DNA from: Myxococcota bacterium
Lineage (GTDB): Bacteria > Myxococcota_A > UBA796 > UBA2385
NCBI GenBank assembly: GCA_044344255.1
Contig: JBIJDH010000021.1
Span: 64,001 to 128,000, forward strand
Length of the DNA stretch: 64,000 nucleotides
Direction: 5' to 3'
Made by a program: the position numbers and the translations under genes. This document shows positions 1,942-26,571 of this stretch, in pieces (positions within the stretch are counted from its first letter, which is position 1; each line of letters starts with the position of its first letter). Below the pieces are notes generated by a model, which was given only the letters and a program-made list of their open reading frames with translations, was not told where the DNA came from and did not search any database.

Positions 1942-4900
1942 GGTCGGTGAGGTTGAGGCGGACGGCGGGGTCTCCGAGCACGATGTAGTTGCGCAGGTCC
2001 ACCGAGGCGACCCTCAGGCGCTCGGCTTCGGCGATGAGGGCCTCGAGCTCGACCGCCTCCAGGCCGGCGGTGCGGGCGCGGTGAACGGCCTGCTCGGCGT
2101 CTTGGAGCTCGCTCGAGAGGTGGAGGCGTTGGCGGGTGAGGGCGTCTACCGCCGTGCCGAGGCGGTGGCCTCCGGCGAGCTTCTGCAGCATCTCGCTCCA
2201 CACCTGGGGTAACCAAGGGCGCGCGCCGTCCACGAGCACGGTCCAGGCGACATCGACCTTCCCCACCACCGCGAGGGCGCCCCCCGCCGGGAGCGAGAGC
2301 AGGCGCTGGGACAGCGGGGACAGGAGGGGGAGCGGGATCGGCGCGCGGTGCCCCGCGGCGAATTCCGGGAGGGTGGTGAAGTCGAATTCGGGCTCCGCCG
2401 GCGTGCCTGCGGTGTGGTCACCGAGCAGGAAGACGATGGAGCCGCTGAGCGAGGCCTCGGGGAGGAGGTCGGCCTCGCAGAAGCGGCGGCCCGGGCGGAG
2501 GGTGAGGTCTCCGCGGTGGCCCGGGCCCTGGTGGTCGGCGTCCCCGGCGGCTGGACCTGCGTAGAGGAAGAGGGCGGGGGTCTCGGCGCCGCCCAGCGCG
2601 GCGGTGAGCTGCCGGTCGCCCGCGCCGCCGGGGGCGGCGGCCGGCTGCTCCACCCGCCAGTCGGGGTGCTCGGCCAGGAAGGACCGCCCGACGGGGTTGA
2701 GGAGGCGGCTGTGGAGGGCCTCACGGAGGAGCTCAGGCTCCGCCGGGCCGGTGAGGGTGAGGTGGCGGGCGCGGAGGCCCGGCACCCGCTCGGCGGTGGC
2801 GACGGACTGGGCGTAGTGTGCGTAGTCCACCACCTCGTCGAAGCAGATGCGCCCGACCGCGAAGAGGCGATCGAGGGCGAACTGGATCTCGAAGGGGATC
2901 TCTTCGGGAGAGCCCACCAGGAGCAGGTAGTGGGGGAGGTGGGGCGGGCGACGCATCCCGGGCACGATGGACAAGCGGCGGAGCAGGGCCTCCGGGCTCT
3001 CCCCCTGGTATCCGTCCTCGCCCGTGAACAGTCGGACCCGTCCGCGCGCGTCGTCTCGCCTGTGCTCAATCAGGGGGTGGAGCGCGCGGAGGATGGCCTC
3101 GTCGGCCCCCCGGACCGTCATCAGGCCCCAGCCCACCTCGGCGGGGGACTGCTGGGCGAGGAGCATGCTCCCCGCGCTGCCCGGTCGACGGGGCAGGGCG
3201 TCGCGACCGGCGGTGATGCGGTCCCAGTGGCGACGGGCGTCCCCGAGGGTGTTGTCGAGCTCGGGGAGGTTGCGGATGCTGCGGATGATCGGCCCGGCGC
3301 CGCCGAACTGGAAGAACTGGTGTTCGACGGGCGGGGAGTTGAAGGTGGCGTCGACCCCGCTCCGCTCATTGGCGCCGAGGGCGTGCATGAGGATGAAGGT
3401 GGAGCGGACCCCGTCTCGGAAGCGGCGGGCCCCCGGGGCGCGGGAGACCCGATCCGCCAGCCCTGCGGTGAAGCCCTCGGGGGCCTCGGGGCGCCGCGGC
3501 GTGGGCGGCGGCAGCGGGTTCGACGCGATGACCATGGCGGCCCGCTCCCGGAGGAGCACCTGATGCGGCACGATGTTGGCGATGCCCCCATCGACGAAGC
3601 GGCGCCCGAGCAGCTCGGCGGTGGACATGAAGATGGGGAAGGATCCGCTCGCCCGCACCGCCGACTGGATGCTGCCGCGGCGGAAGACATGCTCCTCCCC
3701 CGTCTCGACGTCGGTGGCCACCGGGAAGAAGAGGGTCTCCTGATCCTCCAGGAGGTAGGTGAGCTCGCCCTTGTAGGCGGAGCGCTGCAGCCCGAGGAGG
3801 CGGAGGGCCTTCTTCGGGCTCAGCCCGAGCGGGAGGTGTTGGACGTCTCCGCTGAGGAGGCGGTTGAGGTCATCAGGCTCCCCGAGCTCGCCGAGGAGGG
3901 GCAGGGTCAACGTGAGGAAGGCCGACAGGAGGCGCGTGGAGGCCATCGACGCGGAGGCTGAGACCCCGAAGACCGAGCCCAACCGACAGAGGGTGGCGAG
4001 GCCGTCGAGGCCGTTGACCGCATAGAAGGCCCCCACCACCGCGCCGAAGCTCGAGCCGCTCACGAGGTCGATGGGGATGCCCCGGCGGTGGAGCTCGGCG
4101 ATGAGGGCCACGTGCGCGTAGCCGAAGGCCCCGCCGCCTCCGAGCGCGATGCCCACTCGCCGATCGGTGACGGCGCGACCCCAGCGTCGGAGGCGCTCCT
4201 GGTCGGCGGGGTCGAGGGACGCCCCCTCTCCGATCGCCGCGAGCCGGGCGGCGGGGATGCGCAGCCGGACAACGCCGCCAGGGTCCTCCGTCCCTGCGGG
4301 GAGGCCGCGGCTCCGCGGCAGCAGGACGGTGGTGACGAGGCTGCAGTCGCTCGGGAGATCGAGGTCGTGCGCCTCGAGGACGCCCCGGGTGAGGTGCACC
4401 ACCTTCTCGGCCAGGGGCGCGAGGCAGCGGGCGGCCTCGGCGGCCCCCGGCTCGGGCACCAGCAGGACCAGCGCGTAGCGAGCGTTCCACCCGTCGAAGA
4501 GCCCGGAGAGCTTCGCCCGCAGGGCCAGGATCTGCTGTCTGTCCAGCGAGGCGAAGGGCGGCAGGCGGAGCCGGAGCCGGTGTTCGTCGGCCTCCGAGGC
4601 GCTGACCTCGATCGGCCCCGGTGAGAGGGCGAGCGCGACGGAGAGCACCCGGTCGTTGAACTCCGCGGCGATAGCGAGGGCGAGGTGGCGGCCCAGGGCG
4701 GGCAGCGCGCGCTCGATGGCGCGGTCGCGGCTGTAGAGGAGGCAGATCTCCGCGCCCCCGGCCCGATCGAAGAGGCCGGTGGCGGGGCCCGGCGGGATCA
4801 CCCGGCGGTTGGAGGAGCAGCAGTCGAGGAAGCTCTGGAAGTCCTCCCGGGTCACGCGCAGGAGCCAGGTGGCGACCCGCGCTTCGAGGGAGGCTGTGGC

Positions 4901-10166: not shown

Positions 10167-11221
10167 CACAGGCCCACCCCGAGGCCGACGCCGGCAGAGA
10201 GGGAGAGGGCGTCGGCGTAGCCGCCCCGGAGCTCCGAGAGGAGGCTGAGCCGCCGGCTGAGCTCGAGGCCGTGGCGGAGGCGGGCCGACCCGCCGAGGTG
10301 CAGCGCCGCGTAGTCCCCGCCGCAGGCGTAGGGGTGGGACTCGTAGGTGACGTCGAAGAGGCCGCCGAGGCGGAGCCCGGTCTGGCCGAGCTGGAGCTCG
10401 AGGCCGAGGGACTGGGGCGCCCGCAGCCCATCGCCGAGGAGCCCGCTGAGCGCCGCCTCGTAGCTGAGGCGGAGCGAGCGGCCGAGCCCCAGCCCAGCGC
10501 CCACCCGCAGCCCGAGCGCCGCCCCCGACGAGACGGCGGCCTCACCGACGAAGCCGGCCTCACCGATGCCCGTGAGCTCCAGCCGCGGCCGGCCCGTGGG
10601 CCAGGTCTTGGTGAAGCGCCCCGGGCTCTTCGGCCAGGCCTCCGCAGGGGCCGCGGGCCCCGCCTTGGGCATCGCCACTTGCTGCCCGGGGGTGAGGCGG
10701 GTGGTGCCGGCGGCGTTGGTCACGCGCACCACGCCCTCTTCGACGCGGACGGTCACGCGGTCCTCCCCCTCCCCCACCACCAGGAAGCGGGTGCCCTCCA
10801 CCACCGTCTCGACGGTGGCGAACTGCACGCGGAAGGCGCCCCGCACGCGGTAGTAGACCTCACCGAGCTCCTGGAGGACGCTCTGCTCGCTCGTCAGGGT
10901 CACGCGGCTTCCCTCGGCGATGTTGAGCTGATGTCCGTTCGTGAAGCGGAGCTCGGCGCGGCCCTGGCGGGTCTCGATCACCACCCCGACGGGCAGGGTC
11001 TGGCCCCTGCGGGTGGGGGTGCGGACCTCGCCGGCCACCACCAGCACCTCGCCGGTCTCTTCGACCACGCGCCAGCGGCCGGCCATGTCGACGGCGCTGA
11101 GCCGCTCGAGGGTGGCCAGATCGGCCGCCGCCGCCCCGCCAGACAGCCCGAGGGTGAGCCAGAGCAGGCAGACGAGGCGGACGAGGGGGACCGAGAGGAG
11201 GGGGCGCGGGAGGCGGGGCAA
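10166..11221 (-). CDS. FecR-domain protein with C-terminal beta-strand-rich (barrel-like) domain
   Basis: Signal peptide; FecR-like GEVYYRV...VEGTRFLV...VRVEEGVVRV...LTPGQQ; amphipathic strands ending SAGVGLGVGL. Confidence 0.75.
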   Translation of the reverse strand: MPRLPRPLLSVPLVRLVCLLWLTLGLSGGAAAADLATLERLSAVDMAGRWRVVEETGEVLVVAGEVRTPTRRGQTLPVGVVIETRQGRAELRFTNGHQLNIAEGSRVTLTSEQSVLQELGEVYYRVRGAFRVQFATVETVVEGTRFLVVGEGEDRVTVRVEEGVVRVTNAAGTTRLTPGQQVAMPKAGPAAPAEAWPKSPGRFTKTWPTGRPRLELTGIGEAGFVGEAAVSSGAALGLRVGAGLGLGRSLRLSYEAALSGLLGDGLRAPQSLGLELQLGQTGLRLGGLFDVTYESHPYACGGDYAALHLGGSARLRHGLELSRRLSLLSELRGGYADALSLSAGVGLGVGL

Positions 11222-11229
11222 GCGGGCGC

Positions 11230-13302
11230 TCAGGTTGTCTCGGGTGTCGAGGGGCGATGCGGGCGAGGGCGGGCGGAGAGATCATTCCCCGTCGGCGGCC
11301 GTCCCGCCACCCACAGGCCGAGGATCCCGGCCAGCACCGCCGGGGAGAGCCCGACCAGGACCCCGGCCGAGGCGGCGATGAGGCCGATCAGCGCGGCGGC
11401 GGCGGGGATGAGGAGGGCCAGCGCGCGCCGCTCGGGGCGGAGGCCTCGGCTGAGCAGGGCGGTGGCGCCGCCGGTGAGCAGCGCGAGCAGGGCGTTCCAC
11501 TCGACCGCCAGGACCTTCAGCCCGGCCTGGCGGAGCAGGCTCTGGATCAGGGCGGCCTCGATCTCCACCCCGTAACGCGGCCCATCGGGCGTCTCGTGGA
11601 TGTCCTCCGTCCCGCCGTAGACCCCGAGCACCACGACCTTCCCGGCGAGCTCGTCGAAGCGGCCCCGCGCCGCATAGGGGACGACGGGCGCCTCGGCGGG
11701 CGGCGAGAAGGTGAAGAGCCCGCCGGCGATGGGGTTGTGCGTGGGGCCGATGATGAGCGCGTCGCCCTCGATGCGGGGCGGCTCCCGCCCGAGCTGAGCG
11801 GCGACCGCGAGCACGCTCGCGTGCCAGTAGCGCCGGCCATCGGGCAGGACCCGCTCGACCGGCGCGGCGCGGACGGTGCCGAAGAAGCGCTCCTCCTTGG
11901 CCTCCACGAGGCCGAGCGCCCCCCGGGCGAGGGCGGCGTGGGCCGGCGTCACCGCCTCGTCCCAGGCCACCCGCACGGGGAGGACCACGGTCACCCCCGC
12001 GGCGCGAAGCTCGGCCACGGCGCCGGCGATGGCCTCGTCCATCGGCGAGGGGGTGGAGAGCGCGAGGTCGAAGAGCACCGCCCGCACCCCCGCCTCCCGG
12101 AGCGCCCGCAGCGTGCCGGGGTGCTCGGCCCGCAGCGCCTTCACGTCGGGCACGTTCACGCCGAGGATGGCGACGTCGGTGGCCGGCAGCGGCCCTCGGG
12201 TCGCGCGCAGCACGGGGTACTGGAGGGCCACGTCGAGGGGGGAGAGGAGGTCGAGGATCGCGACGAGCGCGGGCAGGAGCAGCCACAGGCCTCGGCGGTC
12301 GCGGCGCCCTGCGGGAGGGGAGGGCGCCGCGGCCCAGGCCAGCTCCGGGAGCGGTGGAGAGGCCGAGGCGCGCGGCGGGAGGGGGACGGTGTCGGCCCCC
12401 GGGGGTGGATCGGCCGCCAGGGCGCCAGCGTCGAAGGTGAGGGCGGCGGTGTCGGGCTCGGCGGGCCGCTCCGCCCAGGTCTCCCGACCGTCGAGCACGG
12501 CCTCCAGCGTGCCGCAGTCCGGGATGCGCCGCTCCCGCTCGGTGACGAGGCAGCCCCGGATGGCCGCGAGGGCACGGGCGGGGAGCCCCGGGTTGAGCGC
12601 GAGCGGGTCTGGATACCTCCCCTCCACGACCGCGTAGAGGAGGGAGACAGAGTCTTCCGCCCGAAAGGGCCGCTTGCCGCAGAGCAGCTCATAGAGCATC
12701 ACCCCGAGGGACCAAATGTCCGCGCGGTGATCGACCCGACTGGCGTCGCGGACCTGCTCGGGCGCCATGTAGGCGGGCGTGCCGAGCGAGACCTGGCTGG
12801 CGGTCCGCGCGGCCCCCTCGTCACCGAGCAGCTTCGCGATCCCGAAGTCGGTCACCTTGGGGACGAGCTCTCCGGCCTCGCCTCTGCTGAGCAGGACATT
12901 TCCCGGCTTGAGGTCACGGTGCACGAGCCCAGCCCGGTGCGCCACGGCGACCGCCGAGACCACCGCGCGGAAGATCGTCTCGGCCTGGAGGTAGGGGAGC
13001 CGGCCCTTTCGCAGCAGGCCGTCGAGCGAGCCCCCCTCGACGAGCTCCATGACGAGGACGGGCACGCCGTCGACGTCGAGCACCTCGCTCACGCCGACGA
13101 TGTGGGGGTGGCGGAGGGCCGACTGGAGCCGCCCCTCCTCAATCATCCGCTCCTGGATCGAGGCGCTGCGCACGTGCAACACCTTGAGGGCGTGGACGCT
13201 GCCCCGCGCGCGGTGCCGGGCCCGGTACACACGGGCCATGCCCCCTTCGCCGAGCAGGGCCTCGATCTCGTACTCGCCGACGATGTCCCCGGGGCGTGGC
13301 AC
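11230..13302 (-). CDS. Ser/Thr protein kinase fused to TM-CHASE2-like domain-3TM
   Basis: GEGGMARV, ALK, HRDLKPGN, DFG, GTPAYMAPE; later AGVRAVLFDL, GKVVVLG, TPDGPRYGVEIEA..IQSLL then three hydrophobic helices. Confidence 0.9.
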   Translation of the reverse strand: MPRPGDIVGEYEIEALLGEGGMARVYRARHRARGSVHALKVLHVRSASIQERMIEEGRLQSALRHPHIVGVSEVLDVDGVPVLVMELVEGGSLDGLLRKGRLPYLQAETIFRAVVSAVAVAHRAGLVHRDLKPGNVLLSRGEAGELVPKVTDFGIAKLLGDEGAARTASQVSLGTPAYMAPEQVRDASRVDHRADIWSLGVMLYELLCGKRPFRAEDSVSLLYAVVEGRYPDPLALNPGLPARALAAIRGCLVTERERRIPDCGTLEAVLDGRETWAERPAEPDTAALTFDAGALAADPPPGADTVPLPPRASASPPLPELAWAAAPSPPAGRRDRRGLWLLLPALVAILDLLSPLDVALQYPVLRATRGPLPATDVAILGVNVPDVKALRAEHPGTLRALREAGVRAVLFDLALSTPSPMDEAIAGAVAELRAAGVTVVLPVRVAWDEAVTPAHAALARGALGLVEAKEERFFGTVRAAPVERVLPDGRRYWHASVLAVAAQLGREPPRIEGDALIIGPTHNPIAGGLFTFSPPAEAPVVPYAARGRFDELAGKVVVLGVYGGTEDIHETPDGPRYGVEIEAALIQSLLRQAGLKVLAVEWNALLALLTGGATALLSRGLRPERRALALLIPAAAALIGLIAASAGVLVGLSPAVLAGILGLWVAGRPPTGNDLSARPRPHRPSTPETT

Positions 13303-13325
13303 CGCGTCAGCCTATCGCGGCGGCG

Positions 13326-14009
13326 CTACCGTGGGCCGAGGGCGCCCATCCCGAGCTCGTCGAGGAGGATCTGCACCACCTGGCGCTGCATCTCCACCCG
13401 CCGGGCCTCGGGGAAGCCCATCCAGGTCTCGACGCAGATCCCGACGCAGCCGATGTCGGCGACGATGACCTCGGTGGAGGAGGTGGCGACGGGGTAGTAG
13501 AGCGTGTCCCAGCGCTCCTCGGCCGAGGCCGCCTCATTCAGCCGCTCCACCCCTCGGCCGACGATCGGCGGCATGGGCTCGACGCCGTACACGAGGGTCT
13601 GCCCGAAGGAGGGCCGCACGGCGGGGTCGTAGCGCTTCTTGCTCTCGTGCAGCGTCGCCATCAGGGCCGGGCGCTCGTCGCGCACCAGGGCCATGAAGCG
13701 GGCCGCGAGCCGCCGCTCCCGCTCGGGGGCCGCCGCGTCTCCCGGGAAGCAGCGGTTGAGGTCGAGCCCGCCCGGCGCCGCGCGCTCCCGGGCCCGGTAG
13801 GCCGGCGGGTTCATCACGGGGACAACGAGCAGCCGCCCCCGCTCCGGGCGGGCCCCCTCCTCGATGAGCTCGAAGAGCGCGTGCACGCCGGCCACCTCAT
13901 CGCCGTGGATCCCCGCCTGCACGAGGGCGGTGGGCCCCGGGGCCGCCGCCTCGAAGACGTAGATGGGCAGGGTGGGGGCGAGGAAGTGGACACCGGGAGC
14001 GAGCGGCAA
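13326..14009 (-). CDS. Succinylglutamate desuccinylase/aspartoacylase (M14-like) family protein
   Basis: GIHGDE, DLNRCFPG, LHES, VET motifs; GGAGG before TTG start. Confidence 0.85.
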   Translation of the reverse strand: MPLAPGVHFLAPTLPIYVFEAAAPGPTALVQAGIHGDEVAGVHALFELIEEGARPERGRLLVVPVMNPPAYRARERAAPGGLDLNRCFPGDAAAPERERRLAARFMALVRDERPALMATLHESKKRYDPAVRPSFGQTLVYGVEPMPPIVGRGVERLNEAASAEERWDTLYYPVATSSTEVIVADIGCVGICVETWMGFPEARRVEMQRQVVQILLDELGMGALGPR

Positions 14010-14182
14010 GGCGGCCTCCGAGCGGGGAGCGGAGCGGACCTAACCCCCGCCGCGGCCGCGCACCGGTCGACGGGCGCGCCCTCCCTGCTTACTTGAGAAA
14101 CCAGTTGCCCACTCTCTGGGAAGGGGCAGCCCCGATCCCCATCCTGTCGCCGGAGACCCCGCCTTTGCCTGTGTCACCACCC

Positions 14183-14199
14183 CTGGCACGCCCCTTGCA
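14183..14199 (+). promoter_or_regulatory. Sigma54 (RpoN) -24/-12 promoter
   Basis: CTGGCACG-CCCC-TTGCA matches YTGGCACG-N4-TTGCW; GG at 14185-86 and GC at 14197-98; predicted start site ~14210. Confidence 0.85.
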
Positions 14200-14209
14200 T
14201 AAGTGTGCT

Positions 14210-15556
14210 GCGGCGCCGGGATGACCGGTGGCTCACCGAGAGGCACCGCGGGGAGGAAATGCTCCGCGGGTCGGGCGACCGACGAGCACTTTGACGTGAA
14301 ACAGACCTTTGAGCGGCACCGGTGACGGAGCGCTCTCTCGATGATGCGGTCCTGGAGTGATCCAGCTCGCGGCGGAGAGACAGCGCAGAAGACACCGGCG
14401 ACCTCGACCTGAACCTCCGAGTCGTCGGAGGATCGAGTGGAGGCCGAGCGAGCCGAGGCGCAGCAGCCAGAACCCCCCATCTGCCCCACCCCCACAGGGT
14501 GACGGTCGATCCGGTCGGGGCGAAGCCCGACAGAGATGTCGGGTGACGCGGAGGGAGAGGGCGACAGCGACTCGAGGAGTGGCCCGAACGAAGGAAGAAA
14601 CCCAAGGGAGCATCAGACCGAAGGGAGGCTGCAAGGCCGCCTGGATGGACTGGACTCTTCACCGGAGCAAGACCCTGAGGTCGCGCGGGAGGGAGGTCGA
14701 GAGGCCGAACCGAGCGTGAACGACGAGAGGGGACAAGGGCCGCGGCGACGCGGTACGGCTGGTTGAAGAGGAGGAAGGCTCCGAAGGGTAGACAGCTCGG
14801 GGGGAGCCAGGCGCGCGAGCGATCGGCATCCCGAACGGGCTGAACCCCAGGATCGGCAGCAGGGTGCAATAAACCTGCAAGCGACCATGCGGAGAAAACC
14901 GCTGTAGCCGGGAAGAACGGCAAGAGCGGAAGGAGCGGAGGGGCGGCATCCCCTTCGCCCAGGCGCGGCCCTCGAGAGAGGACCGAGCCCGGACCGGACG
15001 CATGGCGTGATGTCGATGGAGGGGATCTTTGGAAAACCCCAAGAGAGGAAGTCCGCGAGAGCGGCGTGAAAACCGGCACCCCCGACGGGGAGGTGACGCA
15101 GCGCACGCCGAGAGAACGGACCGCAGGATTCGAGCGCGAGTCCGGCAGGCGACCCCGCGAGGGAGCGACTGAACGGAATCGAAGTCTCTGAAGGTGGAGC
15201 GAAGGTCAGGAAGGTTGAACGAAAGGACGACCCGACACACCTGGTGCTCAGGACAGGAAGTGCCTCACAGACCTGCACACTCAAAAGGTGGCAAGGTCAA
15301 AGAGGACGGCTGGGAAGGCCAACGACCAGCGACCTGAAGTGAGTGGAGAATGGAGCCGGCGCCGCAACGCTGGAGCCAGGTACCGCGACCTTGAAGACCC
15401 CGCCAACCCCACGAGAGGCCAGACGAGCGACGCTGAGAGGGGCAACCCGAACAGCACAGGCAGTCTCCTCGAGTCCCCGCGAAAGCCTCTGCAGGGAACC
15501 CCATCGCCACCCGACGCCAAGAAGCCCTCCAGCGCAAGCTGGAGGGCTCTTTTCGT
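14210..15556 (+). ncRNA. Putative large (~1.35 kb) structured non-coding RNA, class unassigned
   Basis: No credible ORF; purine-rich + strand; more than 10 GNRA-capped hairpins; long-range helices including 14569-14579/15465-15475 (11 bp perfect); bounded by a sigma54 promoter and an intrinsic terminator. Confidence 0.75.
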
Positions 15557-15559
15557 TTT
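15523..15559 (+). terminator. Rho-independent terminator
   Basis: AGCCCTCCAGC-GCAA-GCTGGAGGGCT (11-bp stem) followed by CTTTTCGTTTT. Confidence 0.9.
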
Positions 15560-15630
15560 GTCGGCTCGCTACGGCCCGCCCGGCCCGGGGCCGGACGAGC
15601 CCTCCCCTGTGGGGGGCCTACCGGTTGGAC

Positions 15631-16764
15631 CTACCGGTTGGAGATCAGGTCGGCCGTCTCTTGACGGACGTCGCCCTTGCCCCAGTTGTTGTCCCGATTG
15701 GCGAGCTCGGCGGTCTTTCGCGCCTTCTTCTCGGCCTGCAGCTCCACGAGGTGGTGGTGCGTCGTGAAGTAGGGCAGGGACTTGCCGATGATGTCGGCGA
15801 CCGAGTCGAAATTGTGCATCTCGAGGAAGGACTCGGTGCCGCGGATGAGCTCGGCGACCATGTCGAAGCCCTGGAGCATCGGCCCGGTGCAGGACTGCAC
15901 CGTGGTGGCGCCCACCAACATGTGCTCGATGGCGTCGGCCGCGCTCGTGACGCCGCCGATGCCCGAGATGGTGAAGCCCGGCTGATCGAGGGCGATCTCG
16001 GCCACCATGCGGAGCGCGATGGGCTTGATGGCGAGGTAGGAGTAGCCGCCGAAGGTGGAGTGCCCCTCTACGGTGGGGGTGGGGCGCAGGGTCTTGAGGT
16101 CGATGCCGATCGTGCTGAGGATCGTGTTGATCGCGCTCACCCCGTCGGCGCCGCCGGCCTTCGCGGCACGGGAGGGCACGCGGATGTCGGTGATGTTGGG
16201 CGTCATCTTGGCCCAGACGGGCTTGCCGCCCGCGGCCTCGACCACCCAGCGGGTGACCTCCTCCACCATCGCTGGGTTCTGGCCCATCGCCGCGCCCATG
16301 CCCGTCTCGGGGTGGCCGTGGGGGCAGGAGAAATTGAGCTCGAGCGAGTCGCAGCCGGCGGCCAGACAGCGGCTGGCCAGCTCCTGCCAGCGGTCCTTGT
16401 TGTAACACTCCATGATCGAGCCGATGAGGATGCGGTCGGGCCAGGCGTCCTTGACCCGCTTGAAGTCGTCCTCCCAGTCCTCGAAGGGCCGGTCGCTGAT
16501 GAGCTCGATGTTCTGGAAGCCGACGTTGTCGCCGTTGGTCGAGCGCAGCTTGCCGTAGCGGGGCTGGACGTTGACCACGACGGTGTCGGTGAGGCTGGTC
16601 GTCTTGGCGACCACCCCGCCCCAGCCCGCGGCGAAGGCCTTGTTGATGATCGTGGCGTTGGTGCTGGGAGGCCCGCTCCCGATGACGAAGGGGTTCGGGA
16701 ACCGGAGCCCGTTGACCGTGATGGCGAGCTTGGACGAGCCCGCAGAAGATCCAGCGGTGGACAA
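15631..16764 (-). CDS. preA: Dihydropyrimidine dehydrogenase FMN subunit (PreA/PYD1-like, no C-terminal Fe-S domain)
   Basis: PNPFVIGSGPP, GWGGVVAKT, NIELISDR, ELNFSCPHG, KMTPN, GGYSYLAIKPIAL, SGIGG; TTG start after GAGGT. Confidence 0.85.
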   Translation of the reverse strand: MSTAGSSAGSSKLAITVNGLRFPNPFVIGSGPPSTNATIINKAFAAGWGGVVAKTTSLTDTVVVNVQPRYGKLRSTNGDNVGFQNIELISDRPFEDWEDDFKRVKDAWPDRILIGSIMECYNKDRWQELASRCLAAGCDSLELNFSCPHGHPETGMGAAMGQNPAMVEEVTRWVVEAAGGKPVWAKMTPNITDIRVPSRAAKAGGADGVSAINTILSTIGIDLKTLRPTPTVEGHSTFGGYSYLAIKPIALRMVAEIALDQPGFTISGIGGVTSAADAIEHMLVGATTVQSCTGPMLQGFDMVAELIRGTESFLEMHNFDSVADIIGKSLPYFTTHHHLVELQAEKKARKTAELANRDNNWGKGDVRQETADLISNR

Positions 16765-16800
16765 GGGCGCACCTCGTTGCGCGAAGGGAACGAGCAGTCT

Positions 16801-16911
16801 ACACCAATGTCCCCCCCCAACACCAATGTCCCCCCCCAACACCAATGTCCCCCCCAACACCAGTGTTCCCCCCCCACACCAATGTTCCCCCCCCCACCAA
16901 TGTCCCTCCCC
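16801..16911. repeat. Six ~18-19-bp tandem repeats ACACCAATGT(T)C7-9 flanked by a 12-bp inverted repeat
   Basis: Read directly; CGAGCAGTCTAC 16791-16802 / GTAGACTGCTCG 16922-16933. Confidence 0.95.
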
Positions 16912-16934
16912 GGCGCGGATGGTAGACTGCTCGC

Positions 16935-18224
16935 ATGCTCTTCGAGAACGCATGGCTCAACGGTGATCGGGTAGATATGCGGGTTTCGGGCGGCCGAATC
17001 ACCGCGCTTCGGGTCGTCGCGCCGGCGGGCCCGCGCGCGCCTGACCCTCCGCTCGTCCCCCGCCACGGCGAGGAGGTGGTTCGGGACGGCATGATCTGCC
17101 CTCACTTCGCCGAACCCCACGTCCACCTCGACGCCACGCAGCTCGGGCTGCGCAAGCCGAACGTCTCGGGCACGCTCCGGGAGGGCATCCGCAACTGGGC
17201 AGAGCTGCGCGACGGCCTCACTTGGCCTGACGTACGCCATCGGGCGCTCAAGACCATCCGCTGGTACGTCTCGCTCGGCACCACCCGCATCCGCACCCAC
17301 GTCGACACCGCCTGCCTCCCCGCCGTGGAGGCCCTGATCGCGCTGCGGGCCGAGCTCGCCGACGGCCTGCCCGGCGTCATGGCCCGCCCCGTCGACGGCG
17401 GCCGCGAGTTCAAGATCCCAGTCGAGCTCCAGGTGGTGGCCTTCCCCCAGGAGGGCATCCTCCGCGCCCCTGGGCAGCGGGACCGCCTCAACCAGGTGGC
17501 GGCCCTCGGGGTCAACGCCATCGGCGCCATCCCCCACTTCGAGCGCACCACCGACGAGGGCTGGCGCTCGGTGCGGCTGGCCTTTGATCTCGCCGAGAAG
17601 CACGGCGTGGGCATCGACATCCACTGTGACGAGACGGACGATCCGGACAGCCGCAACCTCGAGGTGGTGGCCGCCGAGTCCATCGACCGCGGGATGGGCG
17701 GGAAGGTGGTCGCCGGTCACTGCACGGCCCTCCACTCCTACCCGAACGCCTACGCGGCGAAGATCGTCGAGCTCACGGCCAAGGCGGGGCTGCTCGTGGT
17801 GGCCAACCCCCTCGACAACGTCGTGCTGCAGGGCCGTTACGACGGATACCCCCGGCGGCGGGGCATCACGCGGGTCGATGAGCTCTGGGCCGCGGGGGCG
17901 CGGGTGGCGATCGGCCACGACTCCGTGATGGACCCCTGGTACCGCCTCGGCACCGCCAACATGATCGATCCCGCCTACATGCTCCTCCATGTGGCCCAGC
18001 TCACGAGCGAGCGGGAGATGAACCGGGTCTTTCACACGCTGCACCGCGAGAACCACCAGCCCTTCGGCGAGGTGCCGCCGATCATGGAGGGTGCCTGGGC
18101 CACCTTCCAGTGGTTCCCCGCCGATGATCCCATCGAGTGCCTCCGCCTCCGCCCGCGTGCCCGCGTGCTCTACCGCGGCGGTGAGGTGCACGTGCCCGTG
18201 GATAGCGCTGACTCCGTGCGCTAG
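16935..18224 (+). CDS. codA: Cytosine deaminase-like amidohydrolase
   Basis: EPHVHLD, GTTRIRTHVD, VAFPQEG, IPHFE, DIHCDETDD, HDSVMDPWY. Confidence 0.9.
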   Translation: MLFENAWLNGDRVDMRVSGGRITALRVVAPAGPRAPDPPLVPRHGEEVVRDGMICPHFAEPHVHLDATQLGLRKPNVSGTLREGIRNWAELRDGLTWPDVRHRALKTIRWYVSLGTTRIRTHVDTACLPAVEALIALRAELADGLPGVMARPVDGGREFKIPVELQVVAFPQEGILRAPGQRDRLNQVAALGVNAIGAIPHFERTTDEGWRSVRLAFDLAEKHGVGIDIHCDETDDPDSRNLEVVAAESIDRGMGGKVVAGHCTALHSYPNAYAAKIVELTAKAGLLVVANPLDNVVLQGRYDGYPRRRGITRVDELWAAGARVAIGHDSVMDPWYRLGTANMIDPAYMLLHVAQLTSEREMNRVFHTLHRENHQPFGEVPPIMEGAWATFQWFPADDPIECLRLRPRARVLYRGGEVHVPVDSADSVR

Positions 18225-26419: not shown

Positions 26420-26571
26420 TCCGTTCTACACCCCCCTCCCCGGAGAGGGGCCTCCCCGCTATGCGGGCGGGCCAGGTCCCCCTTGGCACCCTCCTTGCTC
26501 GGTGGGTCGTGTTCCGTCCGATCGATGTCTCGGGACCCCTCACCGCTGGAGGGGCCCGCGCTGGAGGCGCC

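Follow-up and report, generated by a model that had tools for sequence, protein, structure and literature searches.

What occupies the 1,621-nt gap at positions 14010–15630 of the window analyzed here, a 64,000-nt stretch of DNA (positions 64,001 to 128,000 of the forward strand of contig JBIJDH010000021.1) from the Myxococcota bacterium assembly GCA_044344255.1? The window is a 71.5% G+C part of an 8.2-Mb draft genome. We conclude that positions 14184–15559 are a real structured non-coding RNA (ncRNA) gene of an uncatalogued family, a reading to which we assign a probability of about 0.9. The RNA family is widespread in Myxococcota, and the RNA is larger than the previously described big bacterial RNAs of unknown function. 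The evidence comes from homology between paralogs, coding tests, covariation, and contigs assembled from RNA libraries.

A preliminary description of this DNA, prepared from the letters alone, had called the gap the only long gene-free stretch of the window. By a crude gene call based on G+C content at third codon positions (GC3), the gap is the longest in the window and holds no credible gene; the remaining five gaps above 450 nt (618–1,012 nt) all contain open frames of 205–313 codons and are ordinary in composition. The same account described a + strand rich in purines and A in its loops. The RNA has 24.4% A, 37.1% G, and 28.8% C but only 9.6% T, with an AT skew of +0.36 to +0.52. At the upstream end, CTGGCACGCCCCTTGCA at 14183–14199 contains the announced consensus sigma-54 promoter as a perfect TGGCAC-N5-TTGCA, and at the downstream end the proposed terminator was recovered as an 11-pair stem (15523–15548) followed by CTTTTCGTTTT. 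Every sequence feature named in that description was found where it had been placed, including its 11 GNRA-capped stems, all 11 of which are identical letter for letter.

BLAST against the genome of the window retrieved two further copies, one at 3312–4729 of contig C29 and one whose two parts lie at the end of contig C42 and at the start of C29. We refer to the window copy as A and to these two paralogs as B and C. Identity to the window copy is 73–74% by BLAST, and copies A and B are 71% identical in a MAFFT alignment. The homologous region begins at the enhancer-like sites, ~70 nt before the promoter, and closes at the terminator, with unrelated flanks on either side, which bears out the suggestion of a stand-alone unit. 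The two paralogs are nearly identical to one another, lie in the same orientation ~2.2 kb apart, and are separated by a TPR gene and a metallophosphoesterase gene. Contigs C42 and C29 overlap by exactly 127 bases within the third RNA copy, indicating that the assembly broke inside the repeated RNA gene; once joined, they yield two RNA genes in tandem. Several GNRA hairpins are maintained between copies by two-sided changes, as when CCCGACA-GAGA-TGTCGGG becomes GGGCA-GCGA-TGCCC in a paralog, and the terminator stem is likewise maintained in the paralogs through compensatory changes.

The comparison of copies also speaks to coding capacity. The alignment of copies A and B contains 13 gaps, of which only 2 have a length divisible by three and 11 break the frame; its 378 mismatches fall on the three codon positions as 120, 126, and 132 (p=0.75), revealing no codon periodicity. 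The three + strand frames contain 8, 8, and 11 stops, and the three internal open reading frames (ORFs) have no Pfam match. The preliminary description had judged the ORFs of the stretch to be free of motifs and native codon bias, and had named a conserved ORF with a codon-type substitution pattern among the observations that would refute its proposal; no such ORF was found. Given the stops, the frame-breaking gaps, the unperiodic substitutions, and the absent Pfam matches, a protein gene was rejected.

The features of the RNA gene and its immediate surroundings, in window coordinates, are the following.

14210–15555, + strand: the RNA itself, ~1,345 nt, non-coding, purine-rich, and U-poor.
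14184–14199, + strand: predicted sigma-54 promoter, TGGCAC-N5-TTGCA, with the -24 GG at 14185–14186, the -12 GC at 14197–14198, and a predicted start at ~14210.
14094–14111, no strand assigned: enhancer-like site 1 (TGAGAAaccagtTGCCCA), an imperfect TGGGAA-N6-TTCCCA palindrome starting 90 nt upstream of the promoter; probably a binding site for a sigma-54 activator (bacterial enhancer-binding protein, bEBP), to judge by its motif.
14117–14134, no strand assigned: enhancer-like site 2 (TGGGAAggggcaGCCCCG), 23 bp past site 1, from the alignment of the three copies and a palindrome search.
14211–14236, + strand: 5' strand of the terminal helix, in which the beginning of the RNA pairs with the segment immediately preceding the terminator.
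14237–14597, + strand: 5' domain, with the boxes ACCGAG at ~+25 and CUUUGACGU at 14288–14296 and with variable GNRA-capped arms.
14598–14846, + strand: central domain 1, a multi-branch fold with a conserved CCGCGG-GYGA-CGCGG hairpin (model R3).
14838–15052, + strand: core domain, the most conserved part, including GAACCCCAGGAUCGGCAGCAGGGUGCAAUAAACCUGC and GGAGGGGAUCUUUGGAAAACCCCAAGAGAGG (model R1).
14944–14949, + strand: core hairpin loop, CGGCAU here and UUGGCA in most relatives; candidate kissing-loop partner.
15053–15177, + strand: variable linker arms, with GNRA-capped stems at 15053–15064 and 15154–15163, partly missing in relatives.
15178–15428, + strand: 3' domain, a long, irregular stem whose internal loops are conserved and whose closing pairs are GUCUCU/AGAGGC (model R2).
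15318–15322, + strand: 3'-domain hairpin loop, GCCAA; second candidate kissing-loop partner.
15495–15518, + strand: 3' strand of the terminal helix, from the duplex test of cognate ends.
15523–15559, + strand: intrinsic terminator, an 11-pair stem (15523–15548) with a GCAA loop, then a U tract.
13326–14009, - strand: AstE/AspA-type gene, flanking the RNA region.
15631–16953, - strand: dihydroorotate-dehydrogenase-type gene, flanking the RNA region and convergent with the RNA.

The second gene upstream of the RNA, at 11230–13302 on the - strand, encodes a Ser/Thr protein kinase with a CHASE2 sensor domain.

Within 14205–15522, 13 GNRA loops closed by at least three pairs occur on the + strand and none on the - strand. 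Dinucleotide shuffling gave 3.34 +/- 1.83 such loops (maximum 10; 1,000 shuffles, none reaching 13), and the 92 other tiles of the window average 1.98 with a maximum of 6. To assess covariation, three covariance models were built from MAFFT alignments of eight full-length relatives and an RNAalifold consensus, and the loci of relatives were searched with them. Model R3 (14598–14846) retrieved 82 matches in which 90.1% of cells are paired, compared with 65.0% upon shuffling; 57 of its 61 pairs show two-sided changes, and its covariation score is 0.440 versus 0.147. The corresponding values for R1 (14838–15052, 64 matches) are 93.3% versus 69.5%, 41 of 52 pairs, and 0.482 versus 0.147, and those for R2 (15178–15428, 58 matches) are 93.0% versus 68.4%, 47 of 50 pairs, and 0.388 versus 0.119. 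For all three models, none of 500 shuffles reached any observed measure, and sliding the 3' partner by 1–3 columns lowered pairing to 34–46% and the covariation score to 0.09 or less. In total, 145 of the 163 modeled pairs changed on both sides, so that covariation among homologs, which the preliminary description had made a condition of its proposal, is strong in three domains.

Folding of a single sequence agrees with the comparative result. The fold of 14598–15428 recovers the consensus helices, and its minimum free energy lies at z=-6.56 on the + strand, compared with -1.27 on the - strand. Conserved G-U pairs, present in 43 of 61 sequences at one core pair, fix the + strand as the RNA strand; the earlier remark that several stems need such pairs is thereby upheld. 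In the same fold, 78% of the A residues are unpaired, compared with just 17% of C and 13% of U, and A accounts for 52% of the unpaired positions. G takes up almost all C and U by pairing and A stays free, as in RNAs that A-minor and tetraloop contacts hold together, rRNA being the established case. Unpaired A residues and GNRA loops may form tertiary contacts in a compact multi-domain body. GNRA tetraloops are not a family-wide trait, being exact in 32 of 77 and 31 of 74 sequences at two arms of the central domain; they occur only in some arms of the family, the remaining loops being conserved 5–7-mers. The linker at 15053–15177 is deleted in six of the eight full-length relatives in the alignment. 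In the 5' domain, the boxes recur in relatives and in stand-alone metagenomic contigs, and compensatory changes between copies A and B are visible by eye.

Two contacts, the second of them a candidate, tie these domains together. Among 25 distinct elements, cognate 5' (34 nt) and 3' (40 nt) ends form duplexes with a mean of -28.3 kcal/mol, whereas 10,000 random re-pairings of the ends gave -22.3 +/- 0.8 kcal/mol and never a value as low as the cognate mean. The cognate partner ranks first in 8 of the 25 and within the top three in 14 of the 25, and the signal stems from the longer of two subfamilies described below. With 70-nt segments, end pairing did not discriminate (-49.8 for cognate ends versus -43.4 +/- 7.3 kcal/mol, with poor ranks). 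The second contact joins the core hairpin loop and the 3'-domain loop, which co-vary as UGGC/GCCA, UGGU/ACCA, and UGGG/CCCA. Their mean complementary run is 3.77 compared with 3.46 +/- 0.10 for shuffled partners, a value reached by 4 of 2,000 shuffles, and we regard them as a candidate kissing loop only.

Is the RNA a known one? In gathering mode, Rfam release 15 returned no match in the whole window or in 15 loci with copies or relatives, which settles the cmscan search that the preliminary description had proposed. A permissive search (E up to 10) of 13900–15900 gave four matches, all far below gathering, the best of them (E=0.0046) on the terminator. The early impression that the RNA bears no hallmark of rRNA, transfer-messenger RNA (tmRNA), RNase P, or group II introns agrees with the finding that no family of Rfam 15 reaches its gathering score, the models for OLE, GOLLD, ROOL, HEARO, raiA, RNase P, 6S, tmRNA, and group I and II introns included. 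A housekeeping RNA in disguise was also considered and rejected: the genome carries its RNase P RNA (C74, 243 bits) and 6S RNA (C4, 54.8 bits) elsewhere. We found no description of such an RNA from Myxococcota in the literature searched, and two genome-wide ncRNA surveys (PMC8632094, PMC11109978) contain no mention of Myxococc*, Haliangium, Sorangium, or sigma-54, the terms for which they were searched. With no Rfam match, no prior description found, and three covarying domains, the initial suggestion of a large ornate RNA of possibly new class has gained ground. Large ornate ncRNAs are recognized by a length above ~500 nt, absence of coding, and many covarying helices; the present elements are non-coding, rich in covarying helices, and 951–1,774 nt long in the 28 with trusted ends.

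The family is broadly distributed. BLAST over 61 related genomes found pieces of the RNA in 19. A degenerate 36-position motif, representing the most conserved segment, located 55 loci in a collection of species-representative genomes, all of them metagenome-assembled; their labels read Haliangiales, Kofleriaceae, Polyangia, Myxococcales, Myxococcota, and 'Deltaproteobacteria', a few being evidently mislabeled. Duplicate removal left the set of 58 elements used below. Core model R1 matched 73 of 151 genomes in a sample of the order (29 of 61 high-quality genomes; six of seven families) and 84 of 151 in a sample of the class; in one family of another order, every one of the 15 genomes matched, with up to 6 copies. 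In a sample of the phylum, 23 of 151 genomes matched at E<=1e-5, nine of them from other classes. Genomes hold 1–6 copies, and tandem pairs are recurrent. The RNA family is thus old, phylum-wide, and patchy, a distribution that suggests the RNA is accessory and not indispensable. At several loci (L017:582–831, L056:101–284, L025:121–303, L070:114–335 / L089:6291–6512, L086:9044–9222 and 11060–11350), the central-domain model also gave weaker additional matches, in the same orientation as the main match and ~0.4–1.5 kb away from it, which suggests further tandem or degenerate copies.

A conserved partner gene beside the RNA was sought and rejected, as no family recurs among 112 flanking ORFs at 20 further loci bearing seven family labels. 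Reverse transcriptase, transposase, integrase, and phage genes are absent both from these 112 ORFs and from the three loci of this genome, in line with the earlier statement that no reverse transcriptase or nuclease is associated. A gene of the '23S rRNA-intervening sequence protein' family (PF05635, E=1.2e-8) adjoins the RNA at one locus (L100:8904–9332, - strand), a single occurrence. At 1 of the 20 loci, a sigma-54 activator is encoded no more than three genes away, which is chance level for genomes with ~45 activators; in this genome, the activator domain PF00158 has 45 matches, none on the contig of the window. Resident on the chromosome, the RNA gene has no partner gene next to it.

The signals at the two ends of the gene recur in relatives. 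A GG-N10-GC promoter (TGGYAY-N4-6-TGCH) stands 456–1,490 nt upstream of the core in 40 of the 58 non-redundant elements; conserved -24 GG and -12 GC elements at a fixed position before an RNA are the mark of sigma-54-dependent ncRNAs, and the match in the window is perfect. Enhancer-like site 1 is kept in both paralogs, in which the adjoining halves of the two sites (the second of site 1, the first of site 2) make a perfect palindrome (TTCCCACA-N-TGTGGGAA). Across the longer subfamily, which includes the window RNA, palindromes of TGGGAA-N6-TTCCCA type lie 60–95 nt upstream of the promoter. The genome has 87 sigma-54-like promoters, and such a palindrome (up to 3 mismatches, -160 to -20) accompanies only three of them, those of the RNA genes, in each case exactly 90 nt upstream. 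The palindrome looks like a dedicated activator site. The only other sigma-54-like promoter match in the window (TGGCACCCTCCTTGCT, 26484–26499, + strand) is without an enhancer-like palindrome. In the shorter subfamily (~950–990 nt), TCCACAG/TCACAG-like repeats take the place of the palindrome within 160 nt upstream (L029, L030, L039, L041, L049, L061–L063, L074, L026, L045, L065–L067), and this subfamily may respond to a different activator.

At the 3' end, a terminator scan of the region found two candidates compared with 1.7 +/- 1.4 expected, by itself not above chance; the terminator carries weight because it is conserved in relatives, a terminator-like hairpin with a T tract occurring at the corresponding position in 44 of 58 elements. 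Both ends could be located in 30 elements, of which 28 have trusted ends, two terminator calls being doubtful. Predicted lengths of these 28 fall into two groups, ~951–992 nt and ~1,126–1,774 nt, with the window RNA in the longer; models of all three domains match both groups.

Is the gene expressed? Seven freshwater metatranscriptome runs contain 65–89% of sampled words of 14150–15600, and DNA runs from lake, freshwater, and river samples contain 92–100%. Contigs of four RNA runs from three studies were mapped on 12500–17500. They start at 14218, 14224, 14231, and 14240, end at 15521, 15503, 15515, and 15553, and cover only 14218–15553; the flanking genes are uncovered save for a few short pieces of low likeness, although missing cover of the flanks counts as no evidence and contig depth cannot rank expression. 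The preliminary description had expected ends near 14210 and 15555, and the span of the contigs accords well with this expectation; that they stop concordantly across studies is a weak hint that these positions mark the ends of the RNA. The contigs break solely at a 37-mer (15012–15048) common to the paralogs. In each of the four RNA runs, it makes up a separate contig with a higher word depth than its neighbors (in run X15, 443 versus 105–138), which fits the presence of several paralogs or relatives in the same RNA samples. By eye, the loose end of one RNA-library contig matches copies B and C.

Metagenomic contigs add to this picture. The core motif occurs in at least 120 contigs of a metagenome collection. 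Among 80 of the matches listed, 72 are whole contigs with a median of 1,434 nt, 70 of the 72 lacking the promoter and 2 having it. The 5' box lies 3–53 nt from the start in 42 of the whole contigs (median 14.5; 25 nt or less in 40 of the 42), compared with +25 from the predicted start in genomic loci, and the stand-alone contigs start 0–22 nt past the predicted transcription start. In 40 of the whole contigs, the 3' box has a median distance of 34.5 nt from the end, compared with 34 nt before the terminator stem in genomic loci. Since these box-to-end distances match the genomic loci, the short contigs look like assembled transcripts running from the predicted start to the foot of the terminator.

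Several observations weigh against our reading of the locus or against parts of it. RNA-library contigs show neither the strand, the exact ends, nor the level of the RNA, and the short metagenomic contigs are also explicable by assembly breaks at a multi-copy element. Covariation support is confined to the three modeled domains, with the 5' domain (14237–14597) outside the models, and alignments made with covariance models are biased toward the modeled structure, although 11 of 20 and 25 of 52 pairs already have compensatory changes in structure-free MAFFT alignments. For the long-range contacts, the window copy is a poor example, as its own 5'-3' pair ranks only 10th of 25 and its kissing-loop match has only 3 pairs. 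A promoter match is absent in 18 of the 58 elements, 5 of these 18 having 500 nt or less of upstream sequence, and the presumed need for sigma-54 and an activator is read from motifs alone. Finally, the loci offer no recurrent neighbor family.

Two other accounts of the locus deserve consideration. The idea of a degenerate protein-coding gene, or of a gene read unusually on either strand, draws on the long open frames of the - strand, which include a 310-aa ORF at 14174–15106 and stop-free runs of up to 201–333 codons. These runs arise because the - strand is A-poor (9.6% A), stops being rare through composition alone; moreover, frames are broken by 11 of 13 A/B gaps, substitutions are unperiodic, the internal ORFs match no Pfam family, covarying paired columns are unexplained by coding, and both the G-U pairs and the z-score asymmetry mark the + strand as functional. 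We consider the chance of a hidden coding function negligible. Multiple copies, and tandem pairs in several genomes, might instead point to a repeat or mobile-element remnant, or the region could be the long leader of a neighboring gene. Yet the copies are only 71–74% identical while their pairs are still kept by compensatory changes, none of the 112 flanking ORFs at 20 loci and none of the genes at the three loci of this genome is a mobile-element or phage gene, and the neighbors differ at each locus. In addition, the downstream gene is convergent, a terminator closes the unit, and RNA-library contigs stop at that terminator. Either version is very improbable, and a structured ncRNA gene remains our reading of the locus.

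How such an RNA would work is a matter of weaker inference. Transcription would begin at ~14210 from the sigma-54 promoter, which would be silent until activated. An enhancer-binding activator seated on the tandem TGGGAA-N6-TTCCCA-like sites (14094–14134) would open the promoter, so that the RNA would be made only upon a signal. The RNA would fold compactly, in several domains, leaving few C and U unpaired. By analogy with OLE, ROOL, and GOLLD, we lean, at somewhat less than even odds, toward an architectural RNA that forms either the core of an RNA-protein particle or an RNA-only assembly; it would not act by base-pairing with mRNAs. Taken as a whole, the proposal is more tentative: the window RNA as founding member of a new class of giant ornate RNAs (~0.95–1.8 kb, larger than GOLLD), located on Myxococcota chromosomes, with their own sigma-54 activator, and acting through three-dimensional architecture as a self-assembling particle or ribozyme rather than by pairing or as a sponge.

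A possible but rather doubtful alternative is a protein-sequestering regulator of the CrcZ/CsrB kind, turned on by a sigma-54 activator, whose many exposed A/G-rich strands would titrate an RNA-binding protein such as Hfq or a CsrA-like protein and so relieve the repression of its targets. The promoter logic is that of CrcZ, with an apparently dedicated enhancer and a sigma-54 promoter before an ncRNA; the preponderance of A among unpaired positions of 14598–15428, with 78% of all A free, would suit such a role, as would YUGAAGG-type boxes that recur by eye in the alignments and the 1–6 copies per genome, reminiscent of paralogous sponge RNA sets. Known sponge RNAs, however, are 100–400 nt long and built of simple repeated hairpins, whereas 163 modeled pairs, a closing helix, and a candidate kissing loop, kept phylum-wide, amount to far more structure than sequestration needs; no repeated loop motif has statistical support, and no binding protein was identified. 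Less probable still is a ribozyme or ligand-sensing RNA with junction nucleotides as its active site. Very strong conservation of unpaired and junction stretches of the core across families, with invariant columns, speaks for this account, and the size and domain complexity are typical of large ribozymes. Even at E up to 10, though, there is no likeness to any Rfam ribozyme family, nor is there any sign of a substrate or a processing site; RNA-library contigs continue across the RNA, their breaks at 15012–15048 falling in the 37-mer common to paralogs; and OLE, ROOL, and GOLLD have equally conserved junctions without known catalysis. We would thus rank an architectural role first, protein titration second, and a ribozyme or sensor third, with the remaining probability going to something else.

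To our knowledge, very few bacterial RNAs combine large size and an elaborate conserved fold with an unknown function: OLE, GOLLD, ROOL, HEARO, and raiA. Small sigma-54-dependent RNAs form a second point of comparison. CrcZ/CrcY (activated by CbrB), GlmY (GlrR), and Qrr1–5 (LuxO) have a -24/-12 promoter, upstream activator sites, and their own terminator, are often paralogous, are ~100–400 nt long with simple folds, and act by pairing or by titrating a protein. The window RNA resembles them as an ncRNA with paralogs, its own terminator, and a sigma-54-type promoter preceded by putative upstream sites, but it is 3–15 times longer and has 163 modeled conserved pairs and long-range contacts. OLE RNA of Bacillota, ~600 nt long, is tied to partner protein genes (oap genes, e.g., oapA), whereas GOLLD and ROOL are prophage or phage RNAs whose genes often neighbor tRNA genes. 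OLE shares with the window RNA its large size, multiple domains, high conservation, and own transcription unit, and it forms homo-oligomers according to PMC12286853. The present family differs in its length (~950–1,770 nt), its sigma-54 promoter, its 1–6 copies per genome, its occurrence in Myxococcota, and its lack of an OLE match in Rfam; no gene family recurs beside the RNA at 20 loci, OapA not having been sought by name. GOLLD and ROOL are, like the window RNA, ornate and rich in GNRA and A-minor type elements, and the same paper (PMC12286853) describes their assembly into RNA-only cages. Unlike them, the window RNA is larger, chromosomal, and equipped with a predicted sigma-54 promoter; no phage genes appear among the 112 flanking ORFs at 20 loci or at the three loci of this genome, and the window has no tRNA match.

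Each known large ornate RNA has opened new biology, most recently the RNA-only cages described in PMC12286853, and the family described here would be the largest of them. It spans a phylum known for social behavior and large regulatory networks, and RNA libraries made from lake and river samples contain it. With more than 130 diverse sequences available, good targets for cryo-EM and chemical probing can be chosen. The family also has what other large ornate RNAs lack, a recognizable on-switch in the form of a predicted sigma-54 promoter with an apparently dedicated enhancer, and this combination makes the inducing condition and the regulator directly searchable.

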